64,000 nucleotides of DNA from Antedon mediterranea. Lineage: Eukaryota; Animalia; Echinodermata. The notes under the pieces were generated by a model that was given only the letters and a program-made list of their open reading frames with translations, had not been told where the DNA came from and did not search any database. The stretch lies in assembly GCF_964355755.1 (NCBI RefSeq), contig NC_092674.1, positions 1,612,001 to 1,676,000 on the forward strand. Reading direction: 5' to 3'. Position 1 is the first letter of the stretch. Each line of letters starts with the position of its first letter. The translations under genes were made by a program, and so were the position numbers. Positions 1-22,608 of the stretch are shown piece after piece.

Positions 1-1048
1 TGTTTGCCTGCCACAGAGGAAGAAACCAATAAACAACAAACGTTATATAATTTATCATTAGTCATTTAGTGACAAATAAAACACTAATATAATAATATCT
101 ACCTCAGATATGGCATAAATGTCCCCAAACTGCCAAGTCATAAATCGAATAAAAAATATCCACAACCGGTCTCTAGATAAACGTTCACCAGTCAGAAAGG
201 GTTGGACCATAAACGATAAACCTTTATATTTAATAAGCTACAGTTGAGTTACGCTACACTGAGCTCAAACCATAAAGACTTATACAAACACAAATAAAAT
301 ACTCATTCTGGTATTCAGTATATGCAAATTACCTCGTTGATGACTCATCTACAGTGGGCTAGACCTGCCTTGTTGCACCCTGATTGTATTTGTGCGGTAG
401 CCGTTACGTGTGGCATTTGTTCAACAGGTATTGATTGGGAGTTGTTGCTGTTTAATTTCCACTGTAGAGAAAGAGAGAGAAGAATGAGGGGGCTATAACA
501 ATAATAACTAACACATTGTGAAATAAATACAGCTACAGGTATGAAGTACGATTTATCATCAAGTACATATATACAATGATTATGCATAGACTTGCCCAAA
601 TCTTTATGGTTGTCTTTACGAGCAGCACTAGTCGGCAATTTCTTACAACATCTCCAAATATTTGGTTGACACATAACTTTATATTGTCAGCTCCATTGTT
701 TAACTTTAGTCGCAATAATGTGGTAAATTTGTACGGAGAGCTGCTAGCTAAAATAAAGAACGTACTAACCAAAAAAACACCTTCTTCTATACATAATATA
801 GGTAATGAAAAGGTGGATAGTTAGCTTATCTACTATAGCGCAACGATCCATACTATACAAATAGTATACTAGTTATTTTGACCGATTTTACCGAGACCGA
901 TTTTAAACCGAACTCATATAAGCCCTTGAAGGCTAATTACAACCTCGAAGGTGAGAAGGTTACACTGCTGCAAGGCATTCTACCTACTGTACTATAGTAT
1001 AGTATACTATGATGATGATGTTTCAATGAATATTGAATAGGCTGGCAC

Positions 1049-1270
1049 CGGTCAGTCTAATTACCGAAAACAACCGAAAACAACCGAAAACAACCGAAAA
1101 CAACCATAAACAACTGAAAACAACCATAAACAACCGAAAACAACCGAAAACAAACCGAAAACAAAATAACAATATCTAAATACCGAAAACAAATTTGATG
1201 CAGCTACTATATTGACCTCGCACGCCAAACAAATTTCTACAGTATATTTTTTAAATGTCGCCCTCTATTG
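1049..1270 (+). repeat. Left TIR of the MULE, built of tandem 10-bp CAACCGAAAA units
   Basis: About 10 copies of (CAACCGAAAA). The inner motif ATGTCGCCCTCTAT (~1255-1268) is mirrored by ATAGAGGGCGACAT in the right TIR. Confidence 0.9.
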
Positions 1271-1879
1271 ATAGGTGTTTCTAAAGCCAACAAGACCGCG
1301 CGCGCAAAGCCAAGGAGATAGAGACCATACGAAATGGAAGTGTGCACAAAATTTAACTCAATATCGTACAAACTCAATGATAACACCGTGCATTTACTTA
1401 CAGAATCTACAATATGTTAGATATTTAATATATATGTTACATGAATCTTACGGAGACAAGGAATTGTCTGTAGTCGTAAGACCCTTTGAAAAATAAAACA
1501 TTATCATAGAAAAAAACATGAAATAAGGTTTTAAAGATACAGGTTGGAAAGTTAAAGTATTCCTACATATAATATAAAAGAAACTACATAATAGTAGCCT
1601 AACACTAACACGCACCACGCATAATATATAAGCATTTTAATATATAAGCATTTTTAAATACTGTAATTCGATATAATCACTTCTAAAATATTTTTTAGTA
1701 TTTTATAACAATTTTAACAACTAGGGATGGTTCTCGAATACATAGTATAATTTCAGCGATTTCAAATGTACTTACCGCATGACAATAATACACCACTTCT
1801 ACGACGTTTATTTGTGTATATTGTGTTTATATGTAAAACAGTTTGTGAAAAACACCTCTATTCGGTGCAAATCGTAAAT

Positions 1880-2077
1880 TAGCAGGTCTGAAAATAATAC
1901 TAAAAAGTGGTCAAAAATTGGGACCGTAGTCCGGATTGCCTCCAAATGTAATGGAGTGGTCCTTGGCCACATATTTCTTGCAATAACTTTTTTGAGTAAT
2001 TCTGCTAACAAACAGACAGACAATCAAATAAACAGACACACGCGATCGATTAGAGATACCTCCTTGGCGGAGGTAAA
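1880..2077 (+). mobile_element. 3' end of a non-autonomous Helentron/HINE-like element
   Basis: (CAGA/CAAA)n microsatellite followed by the terminal palindrome ACCTCCTTGGCGGAGGT, the typical end structure of these elements. The 5' boundary is uncertain. Confidence 0.5.
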
Positions 2078-2194
2078 TAATAAATAACTTTTAAACCAAT
2101 CAATTAATTGTGATAGAAGTATTGTGGTATTTGACTGACTTTGACAAATCAAGAAAGACGCCAATAAAAAAATCCCTTTTATGTAATGCTGAAG

Positions 2195-2560
2195 TAATTT
2201 TATTTCTATCTACCCAATTAATAAAGAAAAGCCAGTAATGCCAAATTCATTCTGCATACGACTGATCAGGATGTCGTGATCTATCGTATCAAAAGGATAA
2301 AAAAAAAACTGCCAAAACTAGCATAATATATCACCCTTTATCATGTTTCATCAACATAATATATCACTTTTAACGCGATAGAGCAGTTTCCGTACTATGA
2401 GATTTATTATATTATTTATACCGACTGATATGTTTCATAAAGTAGACAGGAAATGGTTAGATACTGAATAATCTTACCTAACGTATGAAGGTTAGAAACT
2501 GGGCGAAAATCTGAGTTTAATGTTGATTTGGTCGGGAACCTAAACCAATAATTTCGCAAA
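2195..2560 (-). pseudogene. Degraded CR1/L2-type LINE reverse-transcriptase fragment
   Basis: The minus strand reads FRPVSNL (~2490-2510) and FDTIDHDILISRM..FGITG, both CR1/L2 RT motifs, with frameshifts. Confidence 0.7.
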
Positions 2561-2580
2561 TCAACATTAGTAGACATTCG

Positions 2581-2882
2581 TAGGGAGTGAGTGGCCGAGC
2601 GGTTACGACAGTGGAACAGTAATTACGTAGCCATAACATCGGCAGGGGTTCGAGGCTCACTCACTCCGTGGTTCTGGTGGTTAGAACGAGTCTTCTCGGA
2701 TAAGGACTATAAACCGTAGGTCCAGTGTACACATCTCGCTCGTGTGCACTTTAAAGAACCTAGTACGAGACGAGTAGGGGGTTACCCCGGTGTATTAGTA
2801 CATTACAGCCACTGATCACCAACTGGGTCCTCTGGGAGACCAGTCTTTGACTGAAGAGGTTACCCAGTATAAATATAAATTC
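2581..2882 (+). mobile_element. tRNA-derived SINE
   Basis: A-box TGGCCGAGCGG and B-box GGTTCGAGGC, then a central GGATAAGGACTATAAACCGTAGGTCC...TTAAAGAACC...GAGTAGGGG core resembling conserved metazoan SINE cores, and an A-rich tail. Confidence 0.75.
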
Positions 2883-3268
2883 AATCGATTCTGTGTTTTA
2901 AAACTTTTATTTTTATTTAAAATGTATTAGGATAAAAATGGGCAAAACGGATATATTGCTACATTTAAAAATGGAGGTCAAATACACAGTACAAATATTT
3001 TGTATATAGCCCGATTTAAACAAATGACAGGAGAAAAACATAATATCTATTTGGGTATTTATTTCTAACTATACGTTGATTTGTTTACAAACTTTTACGA
3101 TTGCATGTTCATTAAATTCGTCATAACCATGCCAGGTTACTTTCCAGAGGTGAATGACGATATAATATTTTTACATTAAATGCATTGGCGATATTGTTGT
3201 TACCTTTATTTTATGTACATCAAGGATTATGTGTTGCGCTGTATTATACATTTTTTTTTACTTTGATG

Positions 3269-3270
<2 letters not shown>

Positions 3271-3356
<86 letters not shown>
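3271..3356. repeat. (TA)n microsatellite
   Basis: Perfect TA run of ~85 bp. Confidence 0.98.
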
Positions 3357-3357
<1 letters not shown>

Positions 3358-3610
3358 TGAGGACTAGTTGTGTTCCAACCGTACCACGCCGAGAATGTTA
3401 AAGGGTCGTTATCCAATCGAGTTAAAGAACAATACCATGAAATGGTCTAATGGTTAGGGCAACTGCATATCAAGCAGACGGTCCGAGTTCGAGTCTCGGT
3501 TGGGTCGACTTTTTCTCATTCTCACAGATTTCCTCATCTTTATCATTTCAAAAATTAATTAAATAATTTTCAGTGTATCACCGGGCGGTTTGGAATTTAT
3601 TTCTATGCCT
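3357..3610 (+). mobile_element. (TA)n-associated repeat with a tRNA-like segment
   Basis: A-box-like TGGTCTAATGG and B-box-like GAGTTCGAGTC at ~3444-3495, without a good acceptor stem. It abuts the TA microsatellite. Confidence 0.4.
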
Positions 3611-4279
3611 GATGTGTTTTTATATTTATACAATTGTATTGCGAAGCACTGTGTAAATTATATATAAATAAATACTGTCAAATTACAGTGCTCATCGGAA
3701 CATGATCTCATAAACGCGTCATTGGCGAAAGTTCCGTATTTTTTAGTTGTATGAAAAAATGTCTCTGGCGGGATTCGAACCTGTATATACGTTTCATACA
3801 AAAATTGTAATTAATCACGGCAAACAATTCTACGTAGTTCCTCGGAAATCTGTCTTAAGGCCATAACTGACAGGCCTATGCAACTCATCGAATTAATTTA
3901 CTAACTTATTTTACAGAATTGATGCCGTCAAGAACTTGGCTGGGATGATGCAATACCTCGCACCATCCAATCCGAATGGAATATTGGTTAGATGAACTTA
4001 GAAGGCATGAAATATGTTACAAACTACAACACAAAAAGTATGCGAGAGCGAATTACACCCTTTTTTAGATGCTATAATTAAGGGCCAGCGTTTCTGTAGT
4101 TGATGACACTAACTATCGATGAGGCAGCACCCATAGATAGTAATGAAAATAAGTCAGTCTGAGATTTTCAACATGGGAGAACCTCTGGAAAACTATAGCT
4201 TGGGTACCAGGTCCTGAAATACAAGGCTCGACTGAGACAAATATTAAAACTACCAAGGAAGAAGAATGGATCCATCAAT

Positions 4280-4386
4280 ATTCTATCTACCCAATTTAAA
4301 GAAAAGCCAGTAATGCCAAATTCCTTCTGCATACGACTGATCAGGATGTCGTGATCTATCGTATCAAAAGGATAAATAACCTGCAA
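4280..4386 (-). pseudogene. Second copy of the CR1/L2 RT fragment (direct duplicate of ~2203-2300)
   Basis: Near-identical to 2203-2300. The minus-strand ORF reads FDTIDHDILISRMQKEFGITGFSLNW. Confidence 0.7.
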
Positions 4387-5437
4387 AAACTAGCGTTAAC
4401 AAAATTATTGAACCAGTATGAATATGATGTTTCAAAAGAGCACGTCATGAAGACCACAACATTTGAGAAATGTCTATTCCCACAATCAAATGCAATCACA
4501 CACGTATAAAGCATGCTGTGTATTTCAGTTTCTTATAGATACGGTATCAGTAACTTGAACTAGTATATTATGGAGATACTCTGTGGAGATCGATAGTTCT
4601 ATCAACTATGGTTGTTCATTTATTTGGTGCTCTTTAAGTATAGAATAGATAAAGATAAGCTAAAGCGTATCAAGCTCCAAATGGCGCGTTATACCTTAAA
4701 AAAAGCACCTCTGGTTGGTCTCCAATTAACTGAGATCCATAACGCTCTTTGTATGAAATACTAAAGATGGAAGTGTAATTGTGAATCCAAATATATTTTC
4801 TCCTCTCTCCTTTTAAATGTCTAAAATTTTAAGAAACTTAACTCTATAATGATAGATGAATGGAGAATTGAATTACAAAACAAATCGTTTGTATTATTAA
4901 TAAGCTGTGTTTTCTGTTGATTTTATTTAATACAATTTCACTATATTTCTTTATTCATTTTTGTACAGTAATGATCTACCCTATGTCCCTATGTATCGAT
5001 TAAAATTGGTTGGGGTGTTGCGGAGGGTAGAGGATATTTTAGGGGTTGTTAGTTGTTTTTTGCCTTTATAATTTTCTGTATGTATATTGTTATATTTTGT
5101 ATTGTTATTGTGAAGGATGCACGTGAATTTATCGGCTACTATTCACTGTTTAAAAACACAGACGATTTATTGTTGACACTTGAGAATTTGTATAAGTTAT
5201 TCATAAATCTAATTTTTTTACGAAAAAAGAACCTAATTTCACAACTAATTTTAGTGAATTTTCATATATTTATATTTAATCTCTATCGAACGGTGGGGCA
5301 GGGAATAGGCCTAATGGAGGAGGTAGGAGGGTGGGGATGAGCTATATTATAATGATGTAGGCATATGTATAATACCATTAAAATATACAATAGACACATT
5401 ATAATGTCAACAACCTTATAATAAAACAAATACTAAT

Positions 5438-5530
5438 GGAGAAAAACTCGAAAACAGAGACCCCCACTAAAACGTCTCATTATATTGGGGGTCTCTTTTT
5501 TTGAGATTTCCCGAGACCCCCTAATATAAT
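5438..5530 (-). repeat. Inverted copy of the GAGACCCC/GGGGTCTC minisatellite unit
   Basis: AAAACTCGAAAACAGAGACCCCCACTAAAACGTCTC is the reverse complement of units at 6060-6430. Confidence 0.75.
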
Positions 5531-6007
5531 CCCTGTTTATTGAGAGTGTTGCAAATACCCACCAACGAGCTTGGTCATAAATTATTAAAACCCAACTTTT
5601 ATCGCAAAAACCGTGAATTTATGTTTATTTATTTATCAATTTATTTTTATTTTTTTAATTCATTTCTTTTTAAAGGTTCGCCCAACACAATATATTTGTC
5701 TTCATCCTCCAGTCTGCCTCAAAGTCTGACCTCATATCATTTTGTTATTGCATTGTACGTTATTATCTTTTATGCTTGTTAATAAAGGTTACGAAACTAG
5801 TGTCAGTTTTTGAAATAATCTCCCGCTTTTTAGCTTCTAACATGCATTTATACATCTTACTTAACTTCTAGGACGTCGACCTTGTATTCCAAAATGACAG
5901 TCTCTTCACACGCGTTCAAGAATTCATCAATCTTCTTATCGTTGCGGCATGTTCTTTGATATCGGCATATCAGTTACCGTTTATTACTGATACGTCATTC
6001 TGTGATT

Positions 6008-6505
6008 TTGAGACGTTTTAGTGGGGACCCCCTATATAACGTAATATTGACCTAATATTGAGACGTTTTAGTGGGGGTCTCTGTTTTCGAGTTTTTCTCG
6101 AAAACAGAGACCCCTATATAACGTAATATTGACTTAATATTGAAACGTTTTAGTGGAGGTCTCTGTTTTCTAGAAAAACTCGAAAACTGAGACCCCCTAT
6201 ATAACGTAATATTGACTTAATATTAAGAAGTTTTAATGGGGGTATCTGTTTTCGAGTTTTTCTGGAAAACAGAGACCCCCTATGTAACGTAATATTGACT
6301 TAATATTGAGACGTTTTAATGGGGGTATCTGTTTTCGAGTTTTTCTGGAAAACAGAGACCCCCTATATAACGTATTATTTAGACGTTTTAGTGGGGGTCT
6401 CTGTTTTCCAGATTTTCTCGAAAACAGAGACCCTGGGTCTCGGGTCTCTGGTCTCTGTTTTTGAGACACCCGTTTCGACCTATCTCTTAGTCTCTGGTCT
6501 CTGTG
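6008..6505 (+). repeat. Minisatellite of ~80-bp internally palindromic units
   Basis: About 5-6 units of GAGACGTTTTAGTGGGGGTCTCTGTTTTCGAGTTTTTCTCGAAAACAGAGACCCCTATATAACGTAATATTGAC, each containing a hairpin. Confidence 0.85.
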
Positions 6506-6789
6506 TTCGAAGAACCTTAGTAATTTTATCAAGATCATACAAAGGAGTTCCTTACATGTTTATTCTTGACGGTAACCTATTTTGCAATATGTCAGTGGAA
6601 TAACTGGCATTTTATCGGAGTCGGACGGTTTTGTCAAAATAGTGTTTGATATGGCGATAGCACCGGTTCCGTGTGCGGTTATTATCAAAGCAGCCTGTTG
6701 GTTTCCGATTTCTTAAAGATGGTCCCAAATATGAGAGCAGCTTTGGCAAAATGTGCATTGCGATTGGTCTAGAACTTTGACGGTGTTAG

Positions 6790-7027
6790 GCTTCAGAAAA
6801 TAAGCCAATAAAAAAGACCTTCATGCAACTATGTAAAAAGCGTGGTTCTGCTGAAGTTTCTTTCCACTATTTAAAGCGATAAAAAAACACATCATACCTT
6901 TATTCTTGAATTCTCACTGGAGAAAATCCATCTAAATCTTTATTTTTGTACAGTTCAGTTCAGTTGTACAACAGTTCAGTCTATTTTTACTTAACCGTTC
7001 GGTTCTGACGAGCACACAGTGGTAAGT
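6790..7027 (+). promoter_or_regulatory. Putative promoter and non-coding first exon of the MULE gene
   Basis: CCAAT (~6805), TATA-like TATTTAAA (~6868), repeated TCAGTT Inr-like motifs (6950-6980), and a consensus donor G|GTAAGT at 7021/7022 that would pair with acceptor TTTCAG at 7925. Confidence 0.45.
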
Positions 7028-7928
7028 CATTCATAATTATTTACAGTTCATTTTTTAATAGTTAATCATTATTCAGTGTATAAAGAATGCTTTAATTTAA
7101 ATATCTACAACGGTATTCAAGTTATTTATTTGTGCGAATCGCAATTTTTCGCGTATACGCATTCGCAGTTTAATTTTTACCCAAAAATCATCAAACTAAT
7201 CATTTTGACTAATAATGATATAAAGAATTGAAAAACAATAAAGCCTAAGTTAAGCAATTTGATTTGTGTACTTGTTTTTTTTCTTTTTCTCTTTTGTGGC
7301 GCAAACACCACTTTTATTCACATTCATATTATCTCATATTACATAAAATCGTATTATTTAACTTGTAAATGTCGTTACAGTTCATAAGTAACATTTTTAC
7401 ATATATGAATTCTGTATTACTCCTTTTTTCATTAATTTTCTTATATTTTGTTATACACTTGACAGGATCATCATTATCATCTATCCCGTTTTAAAATAGT
7501 TCACACATTTTCATTTGTTTGTTTTCATTTTACAACCCGGATTATACAATATATTTATATACATGATAAAAATAAACAATAATAGCTCAGTACCACCAGT
7601 AACCCGTATCACTGTAATTCTTTTTCTGTTAATCGTATCAAATTAGAAATTATATTATCATAATCTTATTTCTTAAAGCTACCCATTTTTCTATACTTTT
7701 TTCTTTATTGTTATATGTTTCACATTCAATGTTATATAACATATTGCTTTTAAATGAATTCCATAAAGATTTACCGACTGGCTTATTTAGTGCAGATAAC
7801 ATTTTTATTCTATAAATAGTAAATGCTGCAAAAGTGTAAATATAATCTGATAAATATAATGTGTACTTGCTAATGATAGGACCTTACAATTGCTTTCAAA
7901 CCAATTGTTCTTATTTTACTTTCAGAAT

Positions 7929-8934
7929 ATGTACAGACAAAAAAGGCAGCACAAAAAAACTAGACCTTGTTTAACTTGTTTTGATTGTGACAAGAAAAAA
8001 ACGGGGAAATACTTTTGTGGTGTTTGTAAGTTTGCGTGCAACAATGACAGTATATTTTGTGATTATTGCTTACGCTGGTTCCACATATTGTGCGAAAACT
8101 TAACTAAAGCAAACTTGCATAGCTTAGGTAACTCTCCTTTGCATTTCACTTGTTCCGAATGCTGTAGCCCTAATGGCAGTTTTGATTTTTTGGCCTCATT
8201 AGAGCGTATTGATTCAGCTACCAAAAACAATTACAATATACTTGACATAGCGCAAAGTGAACGTTTATTTCTACGTAATCATCGCTTTAGTAAACCCCCG
8301 TTTACGATATCTCAACAGTATGTCATCGATGCTGTTTCTACAAGTATAATGAACAAATGTGGAGGTGGGCGTTTAATCCCTGTATCTGTCGCTGGTGACG
8401 GTAGCTGCTTGTTTAATGCCGTAGCTGTTGCTTTGACTGGCAATGAAAACATTGCTACTGAACTTCGCGTAAGAACATTTGTTGATATGGTAGAAAAAGA
8501 AACATTCTACAAGGAACTGCACAAACATTCAAAAATTGCTTTAACCAGTCCTGATTACAATCTCGCTTGTTCAGATTGTAGTCGTGAAAGCGGTTATTCT
8601 TCAGCTTGGCAGATACAGGCGTTGTCTAGTGTTATAGGGCAAGAAATTATTTCTGTGTATCCTCCTTATAATGGCGTTACTGACAATGCACATCGCATAT
8701 TGAATAGAAGTTTTTATCCTTGCGAAGAAACAGCTGACAGACATCCGATTTTTATTATGTGGACTAGTACACTATTACCTTCTTCAAAGGGTACGTGGAT
8801 TCCTAACCACTTTGTCCCGTTATTGGACAGTTCTTTAATAGATGAGAGAGTGTGTTTACCCGAAATATTGTCATCTTGCTTGTCATCTACTTCGTATGAC
8901 GACATTGGTCACAAGAAAGTAATCAAAAGGAAAG
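7929..8934 (+). CDS. Exon encoding a PHD finger and a vertnin-like OTU cysteine-protease domain
   Basis: C4HC3 PHD pattern (CGVC...CDYCLRWFHILC...CSEC). OTU motifs GDGSCLFNAV (Cys 8406-8408), ELRVRT and NHFVPLL (His 8808-8810). Acceptor ends at 7925, donor starts at 8935. Confidence 0.85.
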
Positions 8935-11900
8935 GTAAATTAGGCCTACTCTACTAATTTAGACAAATGGTTTCTTATTTATTTGTACAAATTTAAAAAA
9001 AATAAAATTTTAGGATAAGAATACACAAAACTTATCCGTACGTAGTGTACGCAATAGATTGGTTCATTGTTATTTTTTATTGTAACGAAGTTATCTCAGA
9101 GGTGTGTTTATATTATTGACCGAGATAAATCTAAATTTTTATAGTTCAAAAAAAGAAAAGGCGACCGAAAATGAAAGAACGAATCGCAACTATAGTACCC
9201 ATATCATCTGATTCCGTTGACTCAACACCACAGGTTGATCCTACAGACTTTCCCTCCACTTCTGTTGATACACAACCTTGCCATAAACGGGATATGATTT
9301 CCCTATCTCCACTGTCCACGCCCAACAGCGACAACGTACCCTTGTCGATGACAACGCCCGACTTGAAAACCACAACAGATACGCAACATGCAAGAGGTAG
9401 TGTTTTGTTCTGTTATTTTTTTTTTAACAAAGACATGTTTTATTTAATAAGTGTAGGCGTCTATAGAAAACTGAGATATCTGATTGTATCTACATCAAAT
9501 ACAATTGTGTGTTTGTACTTATCGATATGAATCTACATTTTTATAGTGCGAAAAAAGAAAACAAGGCGACCGAAGAAGAAGCAACGAATCGCAACCACAG
9601 TAACCATATCATCTGATTCCGTTGACTCAACACTTGATCCTACAGACTTTCTCTCCACTTCTGTTGATAGACAACCTTTCCATAAACGTGATATGATTTC
9701 CATATCTCCACTCTCCACATCAAACAGCGACAACGGCAAAAAGACAGACACAAATGCCACGATGGCTAATTTAGAGGGCTATCCAGCTACCTCTTTTTTT
9801 AACCAATCTTCCAATATAGATTCTGATCTGATTTCATTATCACACCCATTTTCTGACCCCAACAAGAACAGCAATGATCATGCAGACACCAATGAAAAGT
9901 TACTACCTAATCATAATGATGTATTGCATATGCCTATAACAGGAAAGCCTTCCGATAGTGTGATTTTCCAATCCCCAATTTGTAACCCCCACAGCGAAAT
10001 CATAAAGGAAAAAAGCACCATAAAAACTATGCAACATGAAGGTAAGTGTTTTGTTCGTTTTGATCTTCGCATTACAAGATCTGTGTTAGAAAACACAAAT
10101 TTTAGATATATCTAAGTTTTCTAGATCTAAAAAACTCAGATATTTGAGTTTCCTAGAATTATGAAATTTAAATAACAAGATCCGAGTTTCAATCTTCAAA
10201 TATAAAAATCAAATCACATAATACAGTAAATCGTGTCATTATTAATAAGAGGGTAGTGTTTAAAATACACCTATCATTGTAAGTACTGTTATTTGCAATA
10301 TAGTACTGCGGTCAACCTGCATAAAATGCGCCTAAAATGTATAACATGATATAGAACACTGTTCAATGTCTGGTTGTTTATCATGTATGTTATTTACCTT
10401 TAAAAGGCAAAAGAAAAGCTCCCAGCAATAGCCTGAAAATATAGGGGAATACATTTGTAGTTATGTATTGCATTATGGTTTGACAAATATTTTATATATT
10501 TTCAAAAAGGAAAACAGCAGAGGCGACACACTGTATTTTTCAAGATTGAAGATGTCGGTGATAATTCACCAATTATATTTTCTTCGTCCGAGTCTGAAGT
10601 TGATCCTACAGACTTTCCCTCCAATTCTGTTGATACACAACCTTTCCATAAACGGGATATGATTTCCATATCTCCACTGTCCACACCCAACAGCGACAAC
10701 GTACCCATGTCGATGACAACGCCCGACTTGAAAACCACAAAAGATACGCAACATGCAGGAGGTAGTGTTTTGTTCTGTTTTTTTTTTTGTAAAAAATAAA
10801 TGTTTTATTCAATAAGTGTAGGTGTCTATAGGAAACTGAGATATCTGATTGTATCTAGATCAAATAACATTGTGTGTTTGTACTTATCGATATGAATCTA
10901 CATTTTTATAGTACGAAAAAAGAAAACAAGGCGACCGAAGAAGAAGCAACGAATCGCAACCATAGCAACCATATCGTCTGATTCCGTTGACTCAACACCA
11001 CAGGTTGATCCTACAGACTTTCCCTCCACTTCTGTTGATAGACAACCTTTCCATAAACGTGATATGTTTTCCATATCTCCAATCTCCACACCAAACAGCG
11101 ACAACGTACCCTTGTCGATGACAACGCCCGACTTGAAAACTACAACAGCTACGCAACATGCAGGAGGTAGTGTTTTGTTCTGTTTTTTTTTTTTTTAACA
11201 AAGACATGTTTTATTTAATAAGTGTAGGTGTCTATAGAAAACTGAGATATCTGATTGTATCTACATCAAATACAATTGTGTGTTTGTACTTATCGATATG
11301 AATCTACATTTTTATAGTGCGGAAAAAGAAAACAAGGCGACCGAAGAAGAAGCAACGAATCGCAACCACAGTAACCATATCTTCTGATTCCGTTGACTCA
11401 ACACTTGATCCTTCAGACTTTCTCTCCACTTCTGTTGATAGACAACCTTTCCATAAATGTGATGTGATTTCCATATCTCCACTCTCCACATCAAACAGCG
11501 ACAACGGCAAAAAGACAGACACTAATGCCACGATGGCTAATTTTGAGGGCATTCCAGCTACCTCTTTTTTTAACCAATCTTCCAATATAGATTTTGATCA
11601 TCAATTTTCTGACCCCAACAACGACAGCAGTGATCATGCAGACACCAATGAAAAGTTACTACCTAATCGTAATGATGTATTGCATATGCCTATAACAGGA
11701 AAGCCTTCTGATAGTGTGATTTTCCAATCCCCAATTTGTAACCCCCACAGCGAAATCATAAAGGAAAGAAGCACGTCGATGACAACGCCCGACTTGAAAA
11801 CCACAAAAACTATGCAACATGAAGGTAAGTGTTTTGTTCGTTTTGATCTTCGCATTACAAGAATAGATCTGTGTTAGAAAACACAAATTTTAGATATATC

Positions 11901-14900
11901 TAAGTTTTCTAGATCTAAAAAACTCAGATATTTGAGTTTCCTATATTTATGAAATTTAAATAACAAGATCCGAGTTTCAAGCTTCAAATATAAAAATCAA
12001 ATCACATAATACAGTAAGTCGTGTCATTGTTAATAAGAGGGTAGTGTTTAAAATACACCTATCATTGTAAGTACTCATTGTTATTTGCCAAAAATAGTAC
12101 TGCGGTCAACCTGCATAAAATGCGGCTAAAATGTATATCATGATATAGAACACGATTCAATGTCTGATTGTTTATCATGTATGTTATTTACCTTTAAAAA
12201 GCAAAGGAAAAGCTCCCAGCAATAGCCTGAAAATATAGGGGAATACATGTATAGTTATGCATTGCATTATGGTTTGACAAATATTTTATATATTTTCAAA
12301 AAGGAAAACACCAGAGGCGACACACTGTATTTTTCAAGATTGAAGATGTCGGCGATAATTCACCATTTATATTTTCTTCGTCCGAGTCTGAAGTTGATCC
12401 TACAGACTTTCCCTCCACTTCTGTTGATACACAACCTTTCCATAAACGGGATATGATTTCCATATCTCCACTGTTCACACCAAATAGCGACAACGTACCC
12501 ATGTCGATGACAACGCCCGACTTAAAAACCACGAAAGTAACGAATCATGCAGGAGGTAGTGTTTTGATCTGTTGTTTTTTTTTTAACAAAGTAATGTTTT
12601 ATTCAATAAGTGTAGGTGTCTATAGGAAACTGAGATATCTGAATGTATCTAGATCATATAACATTGTGTGTTTTTACTTATCGATATGAATCTACATTTT
12701 ATAGTGCGGAAAAAGAAAACAAGGCGACCGAAGAAGAAGCAACGAATCGCAACCATATCATCTGATTCCGTTGACTCAACACCACAGGTTGATCCTACAG
12801 ACGTTCCCTCCACTTCTGTTGATAGACAACCTTTCCATAAACGTGATATGATTTCCATATCTCCACGCTCCACACCAAACAGCGACAACAGCAAAAAGAC
12901 AGACACAAATGCCACGATGGCTAATTTTAAGGGCATTCCAGCTACCTCTTTTTTTAGCCAATCTTCCGATATAGATTTTGATTTGATTTCATTATCACAT
13001 CAATTTTCTGACTCCAACAACGACAGCAGTGATCATACAGACACCAATGAAAAGTTACTACCTAATCGTAATGATGTATTGCATACGCCTATAACAGGAA
13101 GGCCTTCCGGCGATAGTGTGATTTTCCAATCCCCAATTTGTAACCCCCACAGCGAAATCATAAAGGAAAAAAGCACGTCGATGACAACGCCCGACTCGAA
13201 AACCACAAAAACTATGCAACATGAAAGTAAGTGTTTTGTTCGTTTTGATCTTCGCATTACAAGATCTGTGTTAGAAAACACAAGTTTTAAATATATCTAA
13301 GTTTCCTAGATCTAAAAAACTCAGATATTTGAGTTTCTTAAATTTATGATATTTCAATAACAAGATTCGAGTTTCATTATTCAAATAGAAAACTCAAATC
13401 ACCAAATACAGTAAATCGTGTCATTATTAATAAGAGGGTAGTGTTTAAAATACACCTATCATTGTAAGTACTGTTATTTGCAATAGTACTGCGGTCAACC
13501 TGCATAAAATGCGGATAAAATGTATCATGATATAGAACACGATTCAATGTCTGATTGTTTATCATGTACTGTATGTTATTTACCGTTAAAAAGCAAAAGA
13601 AAAGCTCCCAGCAATAGCATGAAAATATAGGGGAATACATTTGTAAGTTATGTATTGCTTTATGGTTTGACAAATATTTATATATTTTTAAAAAGGAAAA
13701 AAACAGAGGGGACACACTGCATTTGTCAAGATTGAAGACGTCGGCGATAATTCACCAATTATATTTTCTTCGTCCGAGTCTGAAGTTGCTCTAAGTAATT
13801 CCGAAACACGATACAGTCACATAAACAATTCATTTAGTTCTGATCTGGAAAAGCAAGGTTCGTTATTTAATTTACACAACCTAATTGAAACACTATATTA
13901 ATAAAATCTACATTATCTTTGTGTGACACAATATTCGAAAACAAAATTCATTATCATTTCCAATATGCAATTAAAATTAAAATAATTCTGTTTATTTTTG
14001 TGGGAAATTGTGACGGCTGATATCTTTTATTTTCCAAATAAAACTATCTTTAGATGTATCGACTACGTTTTAGCGTGTTCTTAAGGTACAATTACATGTT
14101 ACTAATATACTAATATTCTATTGTGAAAATATTACATATAAAATAGAAAATGCATGCATCATACATTTGCTCCAAAGTAACTATTGAAATAAAGTTTATA
14201 AACAGTGCCCGCAAAAAAGGAAACATGCCTATTACTGTTATTAAATATTTTGAAATTTTCAATATGCTTCGTTTTAGGTGACCGAATGTCGTGCAAAAGG
14301 TTCACAAAGCGGTTGTTAAACAAAAAATTTGTTCAGGTGTCTGAACTATACCAAATCCTCATGAAAACATCAGAAAATGCAACATTCCCAGACATTCCGC
14401 AGGGTGTTAAAGAAAATATGTTATTTGTTGTCAACAATGAAGGCAATGTACAACAACGTTTTGGAGGTGGTCGTAGCTTCTTTCCTGATGATTGTGGTGT
14501 ATGGGACTCGTCAAGTAGTAGTACTCCGAAGACACAGTTCACAAGAGTAGCTGGAAGGCTTATCACCATTGTCTTTAAGTGTGATAGATTTTGCATTAAA
14601 AAAAACGGTACTTGGGTCCCGCTCGTACCACAACCGACTAATATTATAACTTTGCATAGGTGTTATTGTAAATTAAAACGAGACAAAGGGTACAAAAAAC
14701 GAGTGTCGTGGATAGAAAACGAAAACGAAAAAATGAACAACTTCAATAGGCCTAAAGCAGTAGTTGAATACATTGGCAATTTTCCTTTTACCATTTCGTC
14801 ACATGGTAATGACAGACATACACACACAGAATACGTACGTACTCATCCGAAAGTTCTACGTGATGCTGAATGTAGACTTGTCCATTCCAAACCCAGGGAT

Positions 14901-16157
14901 ACTTACGCAGATATGGTTTTTTCTAACCCCGAAAGCGCACCCAGAGATATGAAACAACTGAGAAATTTGAAATATAACCGATCAAAAAAACTCACCACAG
15001 GTAGTAGGTCTAATGTTGCCGATGATATACAAAATTTAATAACCGAATTAACAAAACATGAATTTGTAAAAAAAGTCTTTGCTGTACCTAATCAGCCTCC
15101 TTGTGTAATTCTGTACACAAACAATCAAATTAATGACTTACGAAGGTTTTGTTGTGGCAATATTTCTCAAAGTATACTAGGGATCGATAGGACTTTTAAC
15201 TTGGGGGCTTGCTATTTAACGGTTACTGTTTTTAAAAACACTCTATTGCTTAAAAAAGAAGCAAATGATCATCCCATTTTTGTCGGCCCGATGCTATTAC
15301 ACTGGGATGGTCGGTACAGCACGTATCTTGATTTCTTTACACATTTGCGTTGTCAGCTTGACAGTGACATAAACAATTCCGAAGTTGGTATGAGTTGTAA
15401 TATGGTCATAGGTTCCGACGAAGAAAAGGCAATTTTGAAAGCTTTAAACTTTTCTTTCCCCAATTCGCGACACATATTGTGCACAAGGCATATCAAGCAA
15501 AATGCATCTCGTTACTTGCTTGAAAAGCAAGGAGCAAATAATAAGTACCGACAAATAATACTAAACAAAATCTTTTCGCCGTCCGGATTACTTGGGAGTA
15601 CAAACATTTCACAATTTGACAAACGTTCACTACAATTGGAAATAGATTTCCAAAAACAAGTTCCACTATTTGGAAATTATTTTAGAGATAAACTGTGCCC
15701 AACCTTAAAAGAAAAGGTTTTCAGACCCAATATTACCGACCGAGTGATTCCGGACCGTTGGACAAACAACAACTGCGAAAGCATAAATCACATTCTAAAA
15801 CTATCCATTAACTGGAAACCACAAAGGCTTCCAGATTTAGTACAAATTCTACACAAAATTGCGAAATTACAATATGCAGACGCCCGGCGTGCAATTCACG
15901 GACAAGGCAATTTTTACGTTATCCCTAGATTAAAGAAATATACAGTGCCAAATTCGGTTTGGATAGGGAAATCTGAAGATGAAAAAAACAAATATGTTTT
16001 ACGATTTTTGAAAATATCACTGAACAAAACAGTTGCAAAAACAACAACATCTAAAGACGGGAAATTAATTATTCCTGCAACACCACAATGTGCTAAAAAA
16101 CCAGGACAAAAAAAAAGAACCAGAGTTGCAAAAACCACATCATTCAGTAAGAAATAA
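7929..16157 (+). CDS. Spliced PHD-OTU(vertnin-like)-repeat linker-MULE DDE transposase fusion, ~1860 aa, 10 coding exons
   Basis: Exons 7929-8934, 9145-9396, 9547-10041, 10510-10761, 10912-11166, 11318-11824, 12304-12555, 12705-13226, 13696-13857, 14278-16157. All introns are GT-AG and phase 1. The joined length is 5583 nt with no internal stop. Confidence 0.75.
9100..13857 (+). repeat. Tandem segmental duplications (~1.75 kb period) of exon-intron cassettes encoding Ser/Thr/Asp-rich, basic-cluster peptides
   Basis: Recurrent peptides RKKKTRRPKKKQR, VDPTDFPSTSVD, MTTPDLKTT and KIEDVGDNSP. The introns are near-identical between copies (e.g. 10042-10509, 11825-12303, 13227-13695). Confidence 0.9.
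14278..16157 (+). CDS. MULE-family DDE transposase exon
   Basis: GIDRTFNLG (D 15186), IGSDEEKA (D 15417), CTRH (CxxH, 15480-15491), WTNNNCES (E 15777). Uninterrupted ORF with a basic C-terminus. Acceptor TTTTAG ends at 14277. Confidence 0.92.
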
Positions 16158-18855
16158 GAGTTGTATCAAGACTTGAAAGAATTAATGGTGAAGATTTTAC
16201 TTAGGCTATTTTATATTCACACTTATTTGAAACTCATAATCTACAATAATTACACTCTTTTTATAATAATATTGTTTTGTATATGTTTTTAACTTAATAT
16301 CATTTATATTAAATCAGTATATACTTGTATAATACAAAGATTTGAATGTGAAAAAAATAGTACCGTATTTATTCGAATAAATTGAATAAATGCAACCCAA
16401 CCCCTCTAATTAGGGCGACAATTACACAAACTAATTTTTACTCTATTTAACACGTCGTGATGTAATTGTATTGTAGTTTTCATATTGAAGAGGTTCCGAG
16501 ATATCTATTGAACCATTTTACACCAAAAAAAAAAAATAAAAAGTGCATTAAGCTTATTCAATCGGTTTCCCTAAATTTTGTCGAAGAACCCCATTATCCA
16601 CGCCATCAATGTGTCAAAAGCTAGTAATTTGATTAAATGTTCTCAGTTGTGTTTTATGTCGCACATTTAATAATTCCACATCTCGTACGTTTTACTATTA
16701 CTTTAACAATGAAACGTTTATTATTAAAGGTAGGCCTACCTTAGTTTCTCGTGTTATTAATTCTGTTTGCACTTATTAAATCTATCTTTTTATATTAATT
16801 ATTGTTAAAGTTAAGTCGCATTTTAAATATACTTATGTATTTACTCCAGTATTTGTCACAGTGTTAAATTTTTATTATTTAATAACGCATTTACTAGATA
16901 GCATTTACAGATTATTATTGCAATTTTAAATATGTTTATATTGGTTTGTACATGGAGGTCCTCCATGGTTTGTATAACACTACTTCCTAAAAACATACGT
17001 TCTCTGTCTAACAATTTTTAAAAGCAATGCAATCGTATCCGATTTAGATTGACAACTTAGCAGTTGTAAATATTCAGTTTTGCAATTAGCATTAAGTTAT
17101 AAAATTTCTTTTTTCTTTTAAACTTTTGTTCGATAATTTGTATTTTTTCTCCACATAGAATATAAATCACTTTGCCTTCAACAAACATGTGTATTAAGTT
17201 TGTTCTTTTTCAAAAAAAAATTCACAAATTGATATTTTATTGAGTTTCAACCTATACCTAAAAAAACATTAGATTTCAGTATGTTTTGTGTGTTTTTTTT
17301 TACAAATTAAATTTAGGTAGATGTTGATAATACATTTGATATCTTGAATCAAGTTTGTATACCTCAAAAACATTATATTTAATGCCTTTCCTCTGGTCAA
17401 GAGACGAGATAAGCCCTTGACCAATGTTAGGACCAATCAAGGTGCTTTAAACAGTCCTGGCTTTGTTTGTATCAAACCTGTTAGTGGCGGTAATTATCGC
17501 TGTTGGTTTTTATTTTAATAAAATAAAAAATAAAAAAATAAAAAAGGAATTATGTTACAGATTTTCAGTTGTGTTCTCATGTATTATTTAAAACATGAAA
17601 AATGTTATTTATTTACTACACTATGTTATTTAAATTTAGTTTGTTGTAGTTAAACAAACATGGCTAGATGTTGATAATACATCTGATATCTTGAATCGAG
17701 TTTGTACCTCGAAAACAAAATGAAATTTAGTACTAAAAAGATGTTACAGACTTGAGTTGTGTTCTCATGTTCTCTCAATATGATTAGGCCTAAGGTTAAT
17801 AAAGATTTACAAGTTAATGAAACATGTTTGTGTTTTCACTTCCTGTCATCATTTTTGTCAGACTATTATATATATATATATATTTCAACGGAGAAAAACA
17901 TTCATTAACTCATTAATCAGGGGAAACAACATTACGTTTAATTGTTAAACAACTTAATCAAAATTAAGCTGTCGCTGCAAAAGACTTAAAATGAATCCTC
18001 TCTAAAACGCACACTGCTGGAATTAAGAATTTAACTTATTTAATAAATGTTTATATATTTTTCTTTTTTATTTTAACCTTGATTTTAATTTGTATTACAA
18101 TACTTGTCTAGTCTAGTGGTGAATTGGGCATTACACCAGAAGGCTAGCTATACTCTTTCTTTCAAATTGATTTTTTAATGAAACAAGTACTTTGAACAAA
18201 TTCATGCGTGAGCACATAGGCATCATTTTCTCTCTATTTGCATTCAAATAAATTACAGTTATTCGTTTAGTGAACAAATAAATTCAAGAATCAACATTAA
18301 AATAACGTCAAATGATATGAGTTATGAGGTTCCATTTTTCATGAATTTTACGCGCGAGAGTACCCATTTCCGGCCATCTAGCTAGGGGTGTCATGGGAGT
18401 AAATTAGCTTCGTCACAGGCCCCACCATGGTTCCAATACTTCTTATCATTTTATCAGAACTAAACTTACCCACCCACCCACAATGATCATCTCAGGCATT
18501 ACAAATTTCTTAGTAGGCCTTCTAGCTGTTATATGGCCACCGAATAACAAAGTTTAATAAATAATAGACTATTTAATTAATTTTCAGTGGATTATTTGTT
18601 GGGTACTTGGGGGTATAGGCCTACTATAAAACAAAAAAACACCTCTGACGTATTTAGCTTTGCTTTTTGCTTCTCAGTTTGAAATGAACATGTCATAGGG
18701 GAAAACTTTACCTTTGCTCCCCCCCCCCCACATCTCCCTATTTCAAAATCCTGGATCCGCCCCTGATTTTGGTGCCGAATACTCGTCAGATCCTGACAAC
18801 CAAACCAAGGCTCACGTGTAATAACGCAGTGCTATCTACTTCAATATATCATTAA

Positions 18856-19015
18856 TATAGAGGGCGACATAACAAAAAATTTGTTTTCGGTAATTAGATT
18901 TGTTTTAGTTTGTTTTCGGTTTGTTTTCGGTTGTTTAGGGTTGTTTCCGGTTGTTTTCGGTTATTTTCGGTTGTTTTCGGTTGTTTTCGGTTGTTTTCGG
19001 TAATTAGACTGACCC
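18856..19015 (-). repeat. Right TIR of the MULE, tandem TTGTTTTCGG units
   Basis: Reverse complement of the left TIR, followed directly by the TSD GCTGGCAC. Confidence 0.9.
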
Positions 19016-19559
19016 GCTGGCACTATTTAACTTACCGCATACCGGTGGACAAATTTTAATGTGTTAATTTTTTTAAACTAGTCTTTTATACATGTCTTTT
19101 TTTTTATCAAATTTTGTAAAATACTACTTTTCAGCCTTTTGGCTGCCGTTGTATTTTTTATGTCTTTTTATGAATAAATATACCTGAATAATATTTACTA
19201 CTGTACTACCCGCAACCTGCAGCATGTGAGTAGCAAACCAGGCTAGAGGAGGCCTGGTGGTAGGTAGTTTTGCTAGCCTACTAGGCCTACTTACGCGGTC
19301 TTAATAATAAGTCTATACTAATTAAATTAATAAAAATATATATTATAATATAATATATTGATTGAAGACTACAAGAAAAAAAAGAGATGTAATTCATGAA
19401 TACTTTACTCCTATCCCTAAAAAAGAGCCGACCGAGTTAGAGACTAAGCTCAGTTAGTAAATACAAAATTCACCAACCTATCGTGCAAAACGTGTGGACG
19501 CATGGATCTCAGCTCAGGCTCAGCTGTCAATGCGCCTGGCTGTACACTTTTCAACAATG

Positions 19560-19700: not shown

Positions 19701-21666
19701 TACGCGCCTATGCTGACACTTTCATTAGACGTTTATATAATATATATAATACATACGGATAGTGTATTTAATCAATTGGAATTAAAAGTATAAGTCGGGG
19801 CTCACTCACTCTAGTATAGGCCAACACAGTAAGCGGCAGTTTGGTCATGCCTCCTCCTATCAAGAAAAGTACATATATATAGAGGGCGCTAAGTGAATTT
19901 ACAGCATTGAGCGTTTTTTCAACTGAGTAAAAAAAACAGTGCATTTTATGGATAATTTCTTTGCTCCTGAATGTCATTCAGGCAACATTCATGTTACGTG
20001 TCGTGAAATACTGTAGATGCATTGATACAACCGACAGACGTACGTGTTTTAGTTTGTATTATGAAATTATTGCTACAAAATTCTCAATATCCTAAGTTCG
20101 TGACTTGCCGACTTCCTATATCGTGCGCGTAATTTAATAATCGAAATCAATGAAGCGTGACTTAAGCATGAGAGGTAATGAAGAGACTAAGTTCACCTTG
20201 ACCGTTCTGTGTCAGTCAACCTTCAGTCGCACGTGACAACACGCACGGGGTAAGTATACTATACAATATGTCAATATCATCGGTTATTTCAAATGAAATT
20301 ATTTAGCTTGGCAGTGTCTGAAATATTGAAATGATTGGATATATTATAACATTCATTCAGTCCACGTAATAATTTGATTACTGTATGCAGCGGATATTGT
20401 CTGCCTTGTCACCTCTGGCTACATCGCGTGTATGTATATGGATCGTTGCTTAGGAATATGCTTGAAAAAAATGGAACGGGACGGATTATTGTTTGATGTG
20501 TATTATAGAATACTTAGGCCTCTATGATCGATCCGGCATCTATAATAGAAATGATACTATTTTTGCGATATATGTTCGGGTGTACTAGAGAGTATAATAC
20601 AGTTTTTAATAAGTTTTAGCACCCATGGACGGGCCCGGACCAATATTAACAAAGACATCCACATTACACTTCCTCTCTCTTATAGGCCCAAGTGTTCCCA
20701 TATGTTACAACTAGTAATTTATGTACAACACCTACAGTTCTTCCAAATTATGTGTATTCGCATAGGCCTCCGGATTGTACTAGACTAGTTTTATTGTTAG
20801 AATATTAATACCAAGGTTCAGAGGGGATAAACAAAAAAACACGACTCTTGGATCATGGTAAATATATTCAAGACTGAGTGAGACATATGATAGGCCTCCA
20901 CAGCGAGTCATCTTCATATTTTTAATTGACGCGCGCCGGCGCATTGAATTCATTTGTGCACCTCCCAGGGCGGAGAGAAGAGGACGACGTCATTTCAACC
21001 TGAAATTAGACAATTACTGTAATTGATTCATAGTGGTAGGGCGTGGGCGAATTGATTGAATATAGGCCTATTCAATCATTAAGAAAATGTGTTTAACAAT
21101 TACCATATTGTTTTTCTAGAGCACGAGTGTCATATGATTGTCCCTTAAAAGTTAAACGCACTATAAAACTTAATACTTTTTGGCGCTAACATTTTGTAAT
21201 CCGGCGTCACGCTTCGTGAGTGATTTAAATATTTTCATCTATAAAAAATAATAATAAAAGGGTTGACCAAAAATTAAAGCAAACACATCCTACTAAGTTT
21301 GTGTAAAAAAGTATTTAAAATTAGGACTGTAAATATGCTATGCATTTCACCATATCTGTTTCCTTCCTTATTGTTAGGGCTGGCATATTGTATACAGTTA
21401 AGTAATTTATGTAAAGACATTCCGTACAACAAGAGCGACAAACAATTACGTTTCTTGTGGGTTAGCCACCCACTAGAAAGAAGCTGTTACAAAAATGTAA
21501 TTGTGCATTTGAATAATGTTATCAGTACAGTAATACAAATTGTTCTATTCTTCCAGATTGCCTACCCGTATATTTATTGAGGAGCAACGGGTACCTGCTT
21601 AAGTATTAACTTGAGTTACCAGCTAAGTGTCAAAGACCTTTATTTGGTATACGGTGTCAGAGTTCG

Positions 21667-22608
21667 ATGGCATCCGGCGACCATCATCAAACTGCGAATT
21701 ACATTACACTAGGGTTGCTTTTAGATACGCTGGCACTAACATGGATTATCGGCTACACTAATCATAAATTTGAGAATATTGTTGCCAGTTTGAAAAGGCA
21801 ACAAGCACACTTGACTATCATCCATGCGCCTAGTCATCAGACATCGATATGGCCGCGGGTGGAAGGAATATTCTGCCTCGCTGCTTTAATATGCCTATCT
21901 ATCAAAGAATTCTCGTTCCCATCGTATAAAATAGAAATAACCGCGCACAAAACGTCAAAAGACGCTTCACCAATCAATAACGGCGTAGATGATGACGAAG
22001 ATTGGTGTACGCGCGGATTATTCATGACGTCATTTTTATACGGACTTGCGAGATTGTACCAGGGAAGTGCCGCCAATTCTGGCGTAGTGATGTCTTGGTT
22101 TGTGCGATCATGTCTGCTCGCAACGTTTCTAAATGAACTGTACCTGTTCAGAAAGTTTTTATTTTATACAAACGACAGGATAGAAGTACGAATGCATAAT
22201 GTTTTAGTGATAATTATCGTACTTAGTGCCGCAGCTATACTAATGGACATGTTAAAAGATATCTCAGTTACATTTGCTACATTCAGGATTGTAGGAAAAC
22301 TACCATGGCTAAGATGTATTTTACTGCTATTACAAGGTAATTGGATGGTACAAATTGGATGTACGTTTTACGTTGACATTCTAAACAACGGGTCGTTGTT
22401 TGACCTTATTTTCTCTCTCATTTGTCAGACGAGTTTTGCGGCCTTTTTGATATGTCTTATGTATTTTACCGGTAAAGCATTAGTCTTTGATTCCCCAAAT
22501 ACGAAAGATATACAAAAAGATTTACCAAGTGATGAATGTACTGAAGCATGTATTGATTGTTTGACTGCTGTGTTTTCAAATGCTGGACCGTATTCGTATC
22601 ACTATTGA
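21667..22608 (+). CDS. TMEM45/DUF716-like multi-pass membrane protein (divergent)
   Basis: 313-aa ORF with ~7 hydrophobic segments. LRCILLLLQGNWMVQIG matches the TMEM45 signature (R..L..LQG.W..QIG). Upstream acceptor TTCCAG ends at 21556, with a candidate 5'UTR donor near 20250. Confidence 0.75.
   Translation: MASGDHHQTANYITLGLLLDTLALTWIIGYTNHKFENIVASLKRQQAHLTIIHAPSHQTSIWPRVEGIFCLAALICLSIKEFSFPSYKIEITAHKTSKDASPINNGVDDDEDWCTRGLFMTSFLYGLARLYQGSAANSGVVMSWFVRSCLLATFLNELYLFRKFLFYTNDRIEVRMHNVLVIIIVLSAAAILMDMLKDISVTFATFRIVGKLPWLRCILLLLQGNWMVQIGCTFYVDILNNGSLFDLIFSLICQTSFAAFLICLMYFTGKALVFDSPNTKDIQKDLPSDECTEACIDCLTAVFSNAGPYSYHY

Follow-up and report, generated by a model that had tools for sequence, protein, structure and literature searches.

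An intact Mutator-like transposon of Antedon mediterranea predicted to encode a PHD finger, an OTU protease and a DDE transposase in one chain

The window analysed here, a stretch of 64,000 nt from Antedon mediterranea (contig NC_092674.1, positions 1,612,001 to 1,676,000), contains a Mutator-like element (MULE) that spans 1049-19015 in window coordinates (17,967 bp). We consider it probable that this is a cut-and-paste transposon whose single spliced product joins a PHD finger, an OTU protease, a long linker and a Mutator-type transposase, and that the OTU domain strips ubiquitin-type tags during transposition. Almost certainly it is a real mobile element; the copy is intact and probably young, and the element is likely to be autonomous and to have moved lately.

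The arms of the terminal inverted repeats (TIRs; 1050-1165 and 18899-19014) are 89% complementary over 116 nt, and their outermost 51 nt are identical. The similarity extends to about 1213 and 18854, the TIRs are made largely of 10-bp units, and the terminal base pair is unmatched, the left end being C and the right end reading G. An 8-bp target site duplication (TSD), GCTGGCAC, flanks the element in two identical copies, an agreement expected for two 8-mers with a chance of ~3.5e-5 at the local base make-up. A 9-bp TSD was also considered and dismissed, as it would require a mismatch and offset ends, and most contigs show G before 1050. The long TIRs, the DDE transposase with its CxxH motif and the TSD, which lies inside the 8-11 bp range given for MULEs (PMC6446971), are all as in MULEs. 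The ends were located as follows.

1041-1048, unstranded: left TSD GCTGGCAC (end comparison; single copy in the empty-site form)
1049-1213, plus strand: left TIR with the array of 10-bp units (inverted-repeat comparison)
18854-19015, minus strand: right TIR (inverted-repeat comparison)
19016-19023, unstranded: right TSD GCTGGCAC (end comparison; single copy in the empty-site form)

The window was compared with five public DNA runs (X1-X5) from two samples, all in the form of assembled contigs. Runs X2-X5, which come from one sample, hold contigs in which position 1048 joins the right flank directly with one GCTGGCAC, and this empty-site form confirms the TSD. Two contigs each in X2, X3 and X4 depart from the window after 1048 into the right flank, with the same joint in X4 and X5; the joint is absent from X1, the other sample, and the flank has no coverage in that run. 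In the sample of X2-X5, the TIR also occurs with other, unrelated flanks before 1050 (10-12 contigs per run). The depth of the interior contigs is about three times that of the left-flank contig (130-164 versus 49 in X2 and 875-1205 versus 307 in X4), and a contig of 2,084 nt across the transposase exon differs from the window by one letter. Together these suggest about three near-identical copies, although depth is no copy number. Within the window, no second copy of either coding part was found.

Some observations weigh against so simple a picture of the insertion. The region of the empty site is repetitive: at 1017-1029, the depth exceeds that of the flank contig 8-10 times. The empty-site form may be a paralogous repeat and not an allele, because it occurs at 3-5 times the single-contig depth and is without 7 bp of the right flank. 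Contigs in which the TIR has other flanks differ at 6-10 places and may represent related subfamilies, and a second TSD pair was not read in them. An earlier note on this DNA, made from the sequence alone, had claimed matching TIRs and an 8-bp TSD, with coordinates (1041..19023) that take in both TSDs, and this was borne out by the comparison of the ends and by the empty-site form. It had also proposed a search for other copies and for an empty allele; the public runs show the empty-site form and TIRs with other flanks, but the former may be a paralogue and the latter yielded no second TSD pair.

The coding part of the element was modelled from the best-looking GT and AG sites, so that the exon junctions are predicted from sequence. 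The model has ten exons between 7929 and 16157 (5,583 nt), encoding 1,860 amino acids (aa) with one terminal stop, and nine predicted introns, all GT-AG and all in phase 1.

7929-8934, 9145-9396, 9547-10041, 10510-10761 and 10912-11166, plus strand: predicted exons 1-5
11318-11824, 12304-12555, 12705-13226, 13696-13857 and 14278-16157, plus strand: predicted exons 6-10
7929-8934, plus strand: coding exon 1, PHD finger and OTU domain (Pfam, structure model, fold match)
9145-13857, plus strand: predicted exons 2-9, linker rich in Ser, Thr, Asp and Pro with four basic K/R clusters
14278-16157, plus strand: coding exon 10, Mutator-type DDE transposase (Pfam, model, alignment)
15186 (D), 15417 (D), 15480 (C), 15489 (H) and 15777 (E), plus strand: catalytic codons of the transposase (alignment)

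In exon 1, the C4-H-C3 zinc ligands of the PHD finger are complete (C30, C33, C44, C47, H52, C55, C75 and C78), and the Trp two positions ahead of the His is conserved in most of the aligned relatives. A Trp at this position has a role in the reading of methylated H3K4, and the PHD finger is likely to be histone-binding. The OTU domain has its catalytic C160 (8406) and H294 (8808) and is recognised by Pfam (E 5e-5, 24.3 bits, over the cut-off of 23.3). The structure model of exon 1 (predicted local distance difference test, pLDDT, 88) gave OTU deubiquitinases as top fold matches, namely VCPIP1, DUBA and Cezanne, and a profile search of solved structures again matched exon 1 to OTU deubiquitinases. 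We lean moderately towards an action of this domain on ubiquitin-like tags.

In exon 10, the transposase residues D1538, D1615, C1636xxH1639 and E1735 are all present, and among 72 aligned rows both D and the H are invariant, whereas C and E are found in 71. The model of exon 10 (pLDDT 89) had as its five best fold matches ISCth4, of the IS256/Mutator type, followed by Hermes and P. Two Pfam scores count against the domain assignments, being just below their cut-offs: that of the PHD finger (E 4e-5, 23.9 bits for a cut-off of 24) and that of MULE (E 5.2e-6, 27.3 bits for a cut-off of 27.6), although several relatives exceed the latter. Pfam scans of the element and its relatives detected no FLYWCH or SWIM domain at E up to 1. 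Phantom elements that have no finger are admitted in Table 1 of PMC6446971, so that the missing FLYWCH argues only in part against a Phantom-type MULE. A hint of a CG-1 domain ahead of the DDE core (one protein, E 0.024) did not recur in 32 proteins and was dropped. The intact OTU Cys and His and the D-D-CxxH-E residues that had been read from the sequence were thus all recovered, and the profile and structure searches that had been advised support the PHD, OTU and Mutator/IS256-type DDE assignments.

The fate of the protease among the relatives bears on its role. Among 382 stored proteins, 57 have the OTU and both transposase parts and 52 of these cover the Cys region; the Cys motif is kept in 52/52 and the His motif in 50/52, the count including near-copies, and Cys is retained among relatives at 25-45% identity. 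In four relatives (P0019, P0026, P0031 and P0038), a Ulp1-type protease occupies the position of PHD-OTU, and in a transposase tree these four make up a single branch that lies within the OTU-bearing part. This tree has 60 rows, with 31 N-terminally shortened rows excluded, and was made by a quick method with a midpoint root. Such a nested branch agrees with a need, or with selection, for some ubiquitin-like protease at that position. Judging from these sequences, the PHD-OTU-transposase fusion is a hallmark of a broad invertebrate MULE family.

According to the mechanism that we propose, the transposase would bind the 10-bp arrays in the TIRs and would use its DDE centre for cutting, in the manner of IS256/Mutator enzymes, while the PHD finger would tether the chain to histone H3 tails. 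The OTU domain would work in cis, its targets being the transposase complex or else chromatin and repair proteins close by, and would thereby protect the enzyme from degradation or soften the host response. Proteases of another class, the Helitron-borne VTD proteases, are active deubiquitinases (PMC9741609). Two points weigh against the proposal: according to the same source, transposon OTU domains had not been assayed for activity as of 2022, and the retention count is inflated because some of the relatives were recruited through their OTU.

An alternative use of the protease, which we consider unlikely, is self-processing: the OTU domain would cut the chain in the linker and free the transposase, and ubiquitin would not be its substrate. 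This was suggested for MULE-OTU fusions of Medicago (PMC1702500), and a long disordered linker separates the domains in all relatives (42-308 aa, 82 proteins). On the other hand, the alignments reveal no evident conserved site in the linker, and the top structural and sequence matches of the domain are deubiquitinases. Moreover, the replacement in one branch is again of the ubiquitin-like protease type, and tag removal is preferred over self-cleavage because it was a Ulp1-type protease that took the same slot.

The PHD finger, OTU domain, linker and transposase are very probably encoded as one chain. Of 103 proteins related to exon 10, 38 contain the exon-1 region in the same chain, many being from short contigs, and the named relatives with the fusion include molluscs, a tunicate, a crinoid and others. 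Pfam found OTU together with a Mutator domain in 17 of 48 longer relatives and all three domains in 3 of them. The middle exons are each free of stops in the frame of the model but have 2-22 in the other two frames, and their G+C content is 0.38-0.45 versus 0.25-0.29 in the introns. In addition, exon 1 has a GT donor 20 bases upstream of its own stop, and exon 10 has a good acceptor in the same phase.

The linker itself arose by tandem duplication of exon-intron units, the copies of which are about 90-94% alike. In the predicted exons, 11 of the 13 gaps between duplicated blocks are multiples of three and the remaining two are an adjacent 10+5, versus none of 23 in the predicted introns. These counts come from three pairs that share events, so that there are ~6 distinct gaps in exons and ~11 in introns. 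It is the single-chain relatives, the frame-keeping exon indels and the stop-free, G+C-richer middle exons together that argue for one chain. Against it stand the splice junctions, which are all predicted from sequence, and three weak acceptors (AAG). Furthermore, 288 paths through alternative donors and acceptors near the boundaries likewise stay open, and the exact splice sites are for this reason a prediction only. None of the predicted junctions is among the 15 listed of 127 contig joints, which has no bearing on expression. The ten GT-AG exons joining without a stop into about 1860 aa, as first described from the sequence, are thus reproduced by the model, with exact sites that are predicted, and the mobile three-domain MULE of that description agrees with the Pfam results, the fold matches and the single-chain relatives.

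If PHD-OTU and the transposase were instead two transcripts or two proteins, the middle "exons" would be plain tandem repeats. Exon 10 bears its own Met near its start, and the numerous open splice paths and the reliance of the junctions on prediction leave room for such an arrangement. It is nevertheless improbable in view of the 38 single-chain fusions, the donor of exon 1 and the phase-matched acceptor of exon 10, the confinement of frame-keeping indels to the predicted exons, and the stops that the middle exons have only in the two frames other than that of the model.

With ~940 aa, versus the 42-308 aa of the 82 relatives, the long linker is, as far as these sequences go, an oddity peculiar to this copy. 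A further point on the opposing side is that its exons have a ratio of nonsynonymous to synonymous differences (pN/pS) of 0.47-2.1 in five pairs, with no clear purifying selection; the linker is a local, weakly constrained expansion. With exon 1 joined directly to exon 10, the product would have 961 aa, which is usual for this family, and since all linker exons are in phase 1-1, the fusion survives the skipping of any or all of them. It is very improbable that the element has become a domesticated gene, fixed in the host and with ends that are relics, or that PHD-OTU is an idle passenger: the number of introns and the nested repeats hint at a certain time of residence, but the 51 identical terminal bases, the perfect TSD, the empty-site form, the TIRs with other flanks and the OTU Cys in 52/52 relatives at 25-45% identity speak against it.

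Several known systems resemble the element. MuDR-6_HM of Hydra (group 14; Dupeyron et al. 2019, PMC6446971) is a one-ORF (open reading frame) MULE with an "Ovarian Tumour Gene" motif. By its published description it has 5,227 bp, no TIR, a TSD that is not given and no zinc finger, whereas our element has TIRs, an 8-bp TSD, a PHD finger and ten exons. Babu et al. 2006 (PMC1702500) mentioned MULE with OTU in Medicago and MULE with PHD in Ciona and C. elegans, but there the added domain lies at the C terminus and the two fusions belong to separate groups with WRKY-GCM1, whereas PHD and OTU are here N-terminal and together. Bao et al. 2010 (PMC2836005) described ubiquitin-like proteases, in some cases together with PHD, on Ginger1, Helitron and Mutator elements, and proposed a role of the protease in transposition; in their elements, Ginger1 and Helitron are the bearers of OTU, and Mutator has Ulp1 (with or without PHD), so that order and partner differ. 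Rehavkus shares the MULE-like DDE, the PHD finger and repeats near the ends, but has a 9-bp TSD and no OTU listed (PMC6446971). The transposase of ISCth4 (IS256; PDB 6xgx, 6xg8 and 6xgw), which is the best fold match of exon 10 (E 2.7e-6), is bacterial, 9-14% identical and without protease or PHD. The novelty is reduced because OTU on MULE had already been tabulated (PMC6446971) and mentioned (PMC1702500). In the literature searched, with Repbase and CDD texts outside the search, there was no description of the N-terminal PHD-OTU-MULE form or of a transposon origin of the OTU of vertnin (VRTN). What is new here is that the copy is intact and probably young and that its linker of ~940 aa stems from exon duplication.

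The earlier note had further proposed that the element may represent the mobile lineage related to vertnin. Vertnin is an inactive OTU homologue (PMC10318531) with a transposase-like helix-turn-helix (PMC3024977), and the order of motifs in its OTU-like domain is alike by eye in the alignment of supplement 9 of PMC3024977. It differs from the element in its inactive OTU, in a longer insert (89 versus 67), in helix-turn-helix repeats after the OTU and in having no PHD or DDE. The OTU of the element keeps C160 and H294, no helix-turn-helix repeats were found by Pfam in the four ORFs scanned, and a DDE domain is present, unlike in vertnin. A profile of the OTU type of the element retrieved invertebrate proteins that UniRef calls "Vertnin" (6 of the 120 among the matches listed, of 140). 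The same OTU type rides FLYWCH MULEs, tyrosine-recombinase proteins, Helitrons, hAT and a second DDE-like transposase, in which OTU is on the C-terminal side and "DDE-like" is read from motifs, with no Pfam name.

The Cys-to-Trp spacing in the OTU is 67 here; of the 38 MULE OTUs that were measured, 37 have 64-68, and under a looser pattern 62 of 63 have 58-79. It is 87-99 in 37/37 measured OTUs of the second DDE-like family, and 89 in pig vertnin, counted by eye in supplement 9 of PMC3024977. In an OTU tree of 74 of 308 domains, subsampled and with no vertebrate row, the domain of the element was placed, weakly supported, in the midst of the MULE OTUs and outside the long-insert branch. No vertebrate vertnin was found among 5 matches, among the best 150 of 1,665 (unnamed, 10 of them looked up) or among the 120 of 140 listed. 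In Atlas, a vertnin cluster at rank 30 with a score of 0.78 is a lead at most. The spacing points away from this MULE as the nearest mobile kin of vertnin, while being compatible with shared ancestry; with a tree that has no vertebrate vertnin, this placement rests on one character. The claim of a vertnin lineage therefore stands as far as a related OTU type is concerned, and is weakened because this type rides several unrelated transposon enzymes and because the spacing of 89 fits the other family and not the 67 of the element.

The unnamed DDE-like transposase family with the long-insert OTU (P0105-P0108 and 39 more) is rich in molluscs and has a spacing that fits vertnin, and from its sequences it appears a better candidate for the mobile relatives of vertnin. 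Another group, the P0144 cluster, combines an OTU of the type of the element with a tyrosine-recombinase domain in seven members, on several chromosome-scale contigs of one nemertean; it may be a Crypton-like element that carries OTU.

Of the 18 kb of the element, about 10 kb are non-coding flank between the ends and the gene, in part nested repeats. The following features were noted.

2493-3754, unstranded: high-copy repeats nested in the element, with a run of (AT)n and, at 3441-3501, a tRNA-like piece (depth bins; Rfam tRNA 35.8 bits)
6026-6433, unstranded: 83-bp minisatellite with internal inverted symmetry (repeat analysis)
6950-7022, plus strand: putative non-coding first exon (donor GTAAGT at 7023, acceptor 7925 just ahead of the ATG)
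16376-16390, plus strand: two AATAAA signals past the stop, with polyadenylation likely (motif)

The tRNA-like piece is likely to be a short interspersed element (SINE), and there is no ATG in 6900-7022. A direct repeat of 119 nt (92%; 2204-2322 and 4281-4394) brackets the nested high-copy repeats, and a short broken piece at 3923-3988, in the 5' part of the element, has a weak match to the Pao family of retrotransposons (E 0.27).

Elsewhere in the window, a single open frame of 332 aa with a DUF716 match (E 2e-8) lies at 21610-22608, 2.6 kb from the right end of the element. A 1.45-kb element at 34307-35755, whose inverted ends match perfectly over 60 nt and which lies between the copies of a 9-bp direct repeat, TGGCAGGAC, looks like a non-autonomous MULE of another family. 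In the region 30000-36084, inverted and tandem repeats are nested in a foldback-like cluster, with arms of 136 nt that agree at 97-99%, and at 39186-46001 two 73-nt inverted arms 6.7 kb apart surround a 16/18-bp tandem array (41.8-42.5 kb).

The question why ubiquitin or SUMO proteases are present on many DNA transposons goes back at least to 2006-2010 (PMC1702500, PMC2836005). In the present family, the protease cysteine is kept throughout, and the protease was once swapped for one of Ulp1 type at the same place. As the ends, the frame and both active sites are intact in this copy, a test of the role of the protease is feasible in one construct. For the origin of VRTN, the result turns attention to another transposon family. 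We suggest tentatively that the vertnin-type OTU may be a shared, active deubiquitinase tool needed for the movement of animal transposons, of which VRTN would be a dead, domesticated long-insert offshoot. If this is true, the intact and probably mobile copy in A. mediterranea would be a ready system for PHD-guided deubiquitination in transposition.

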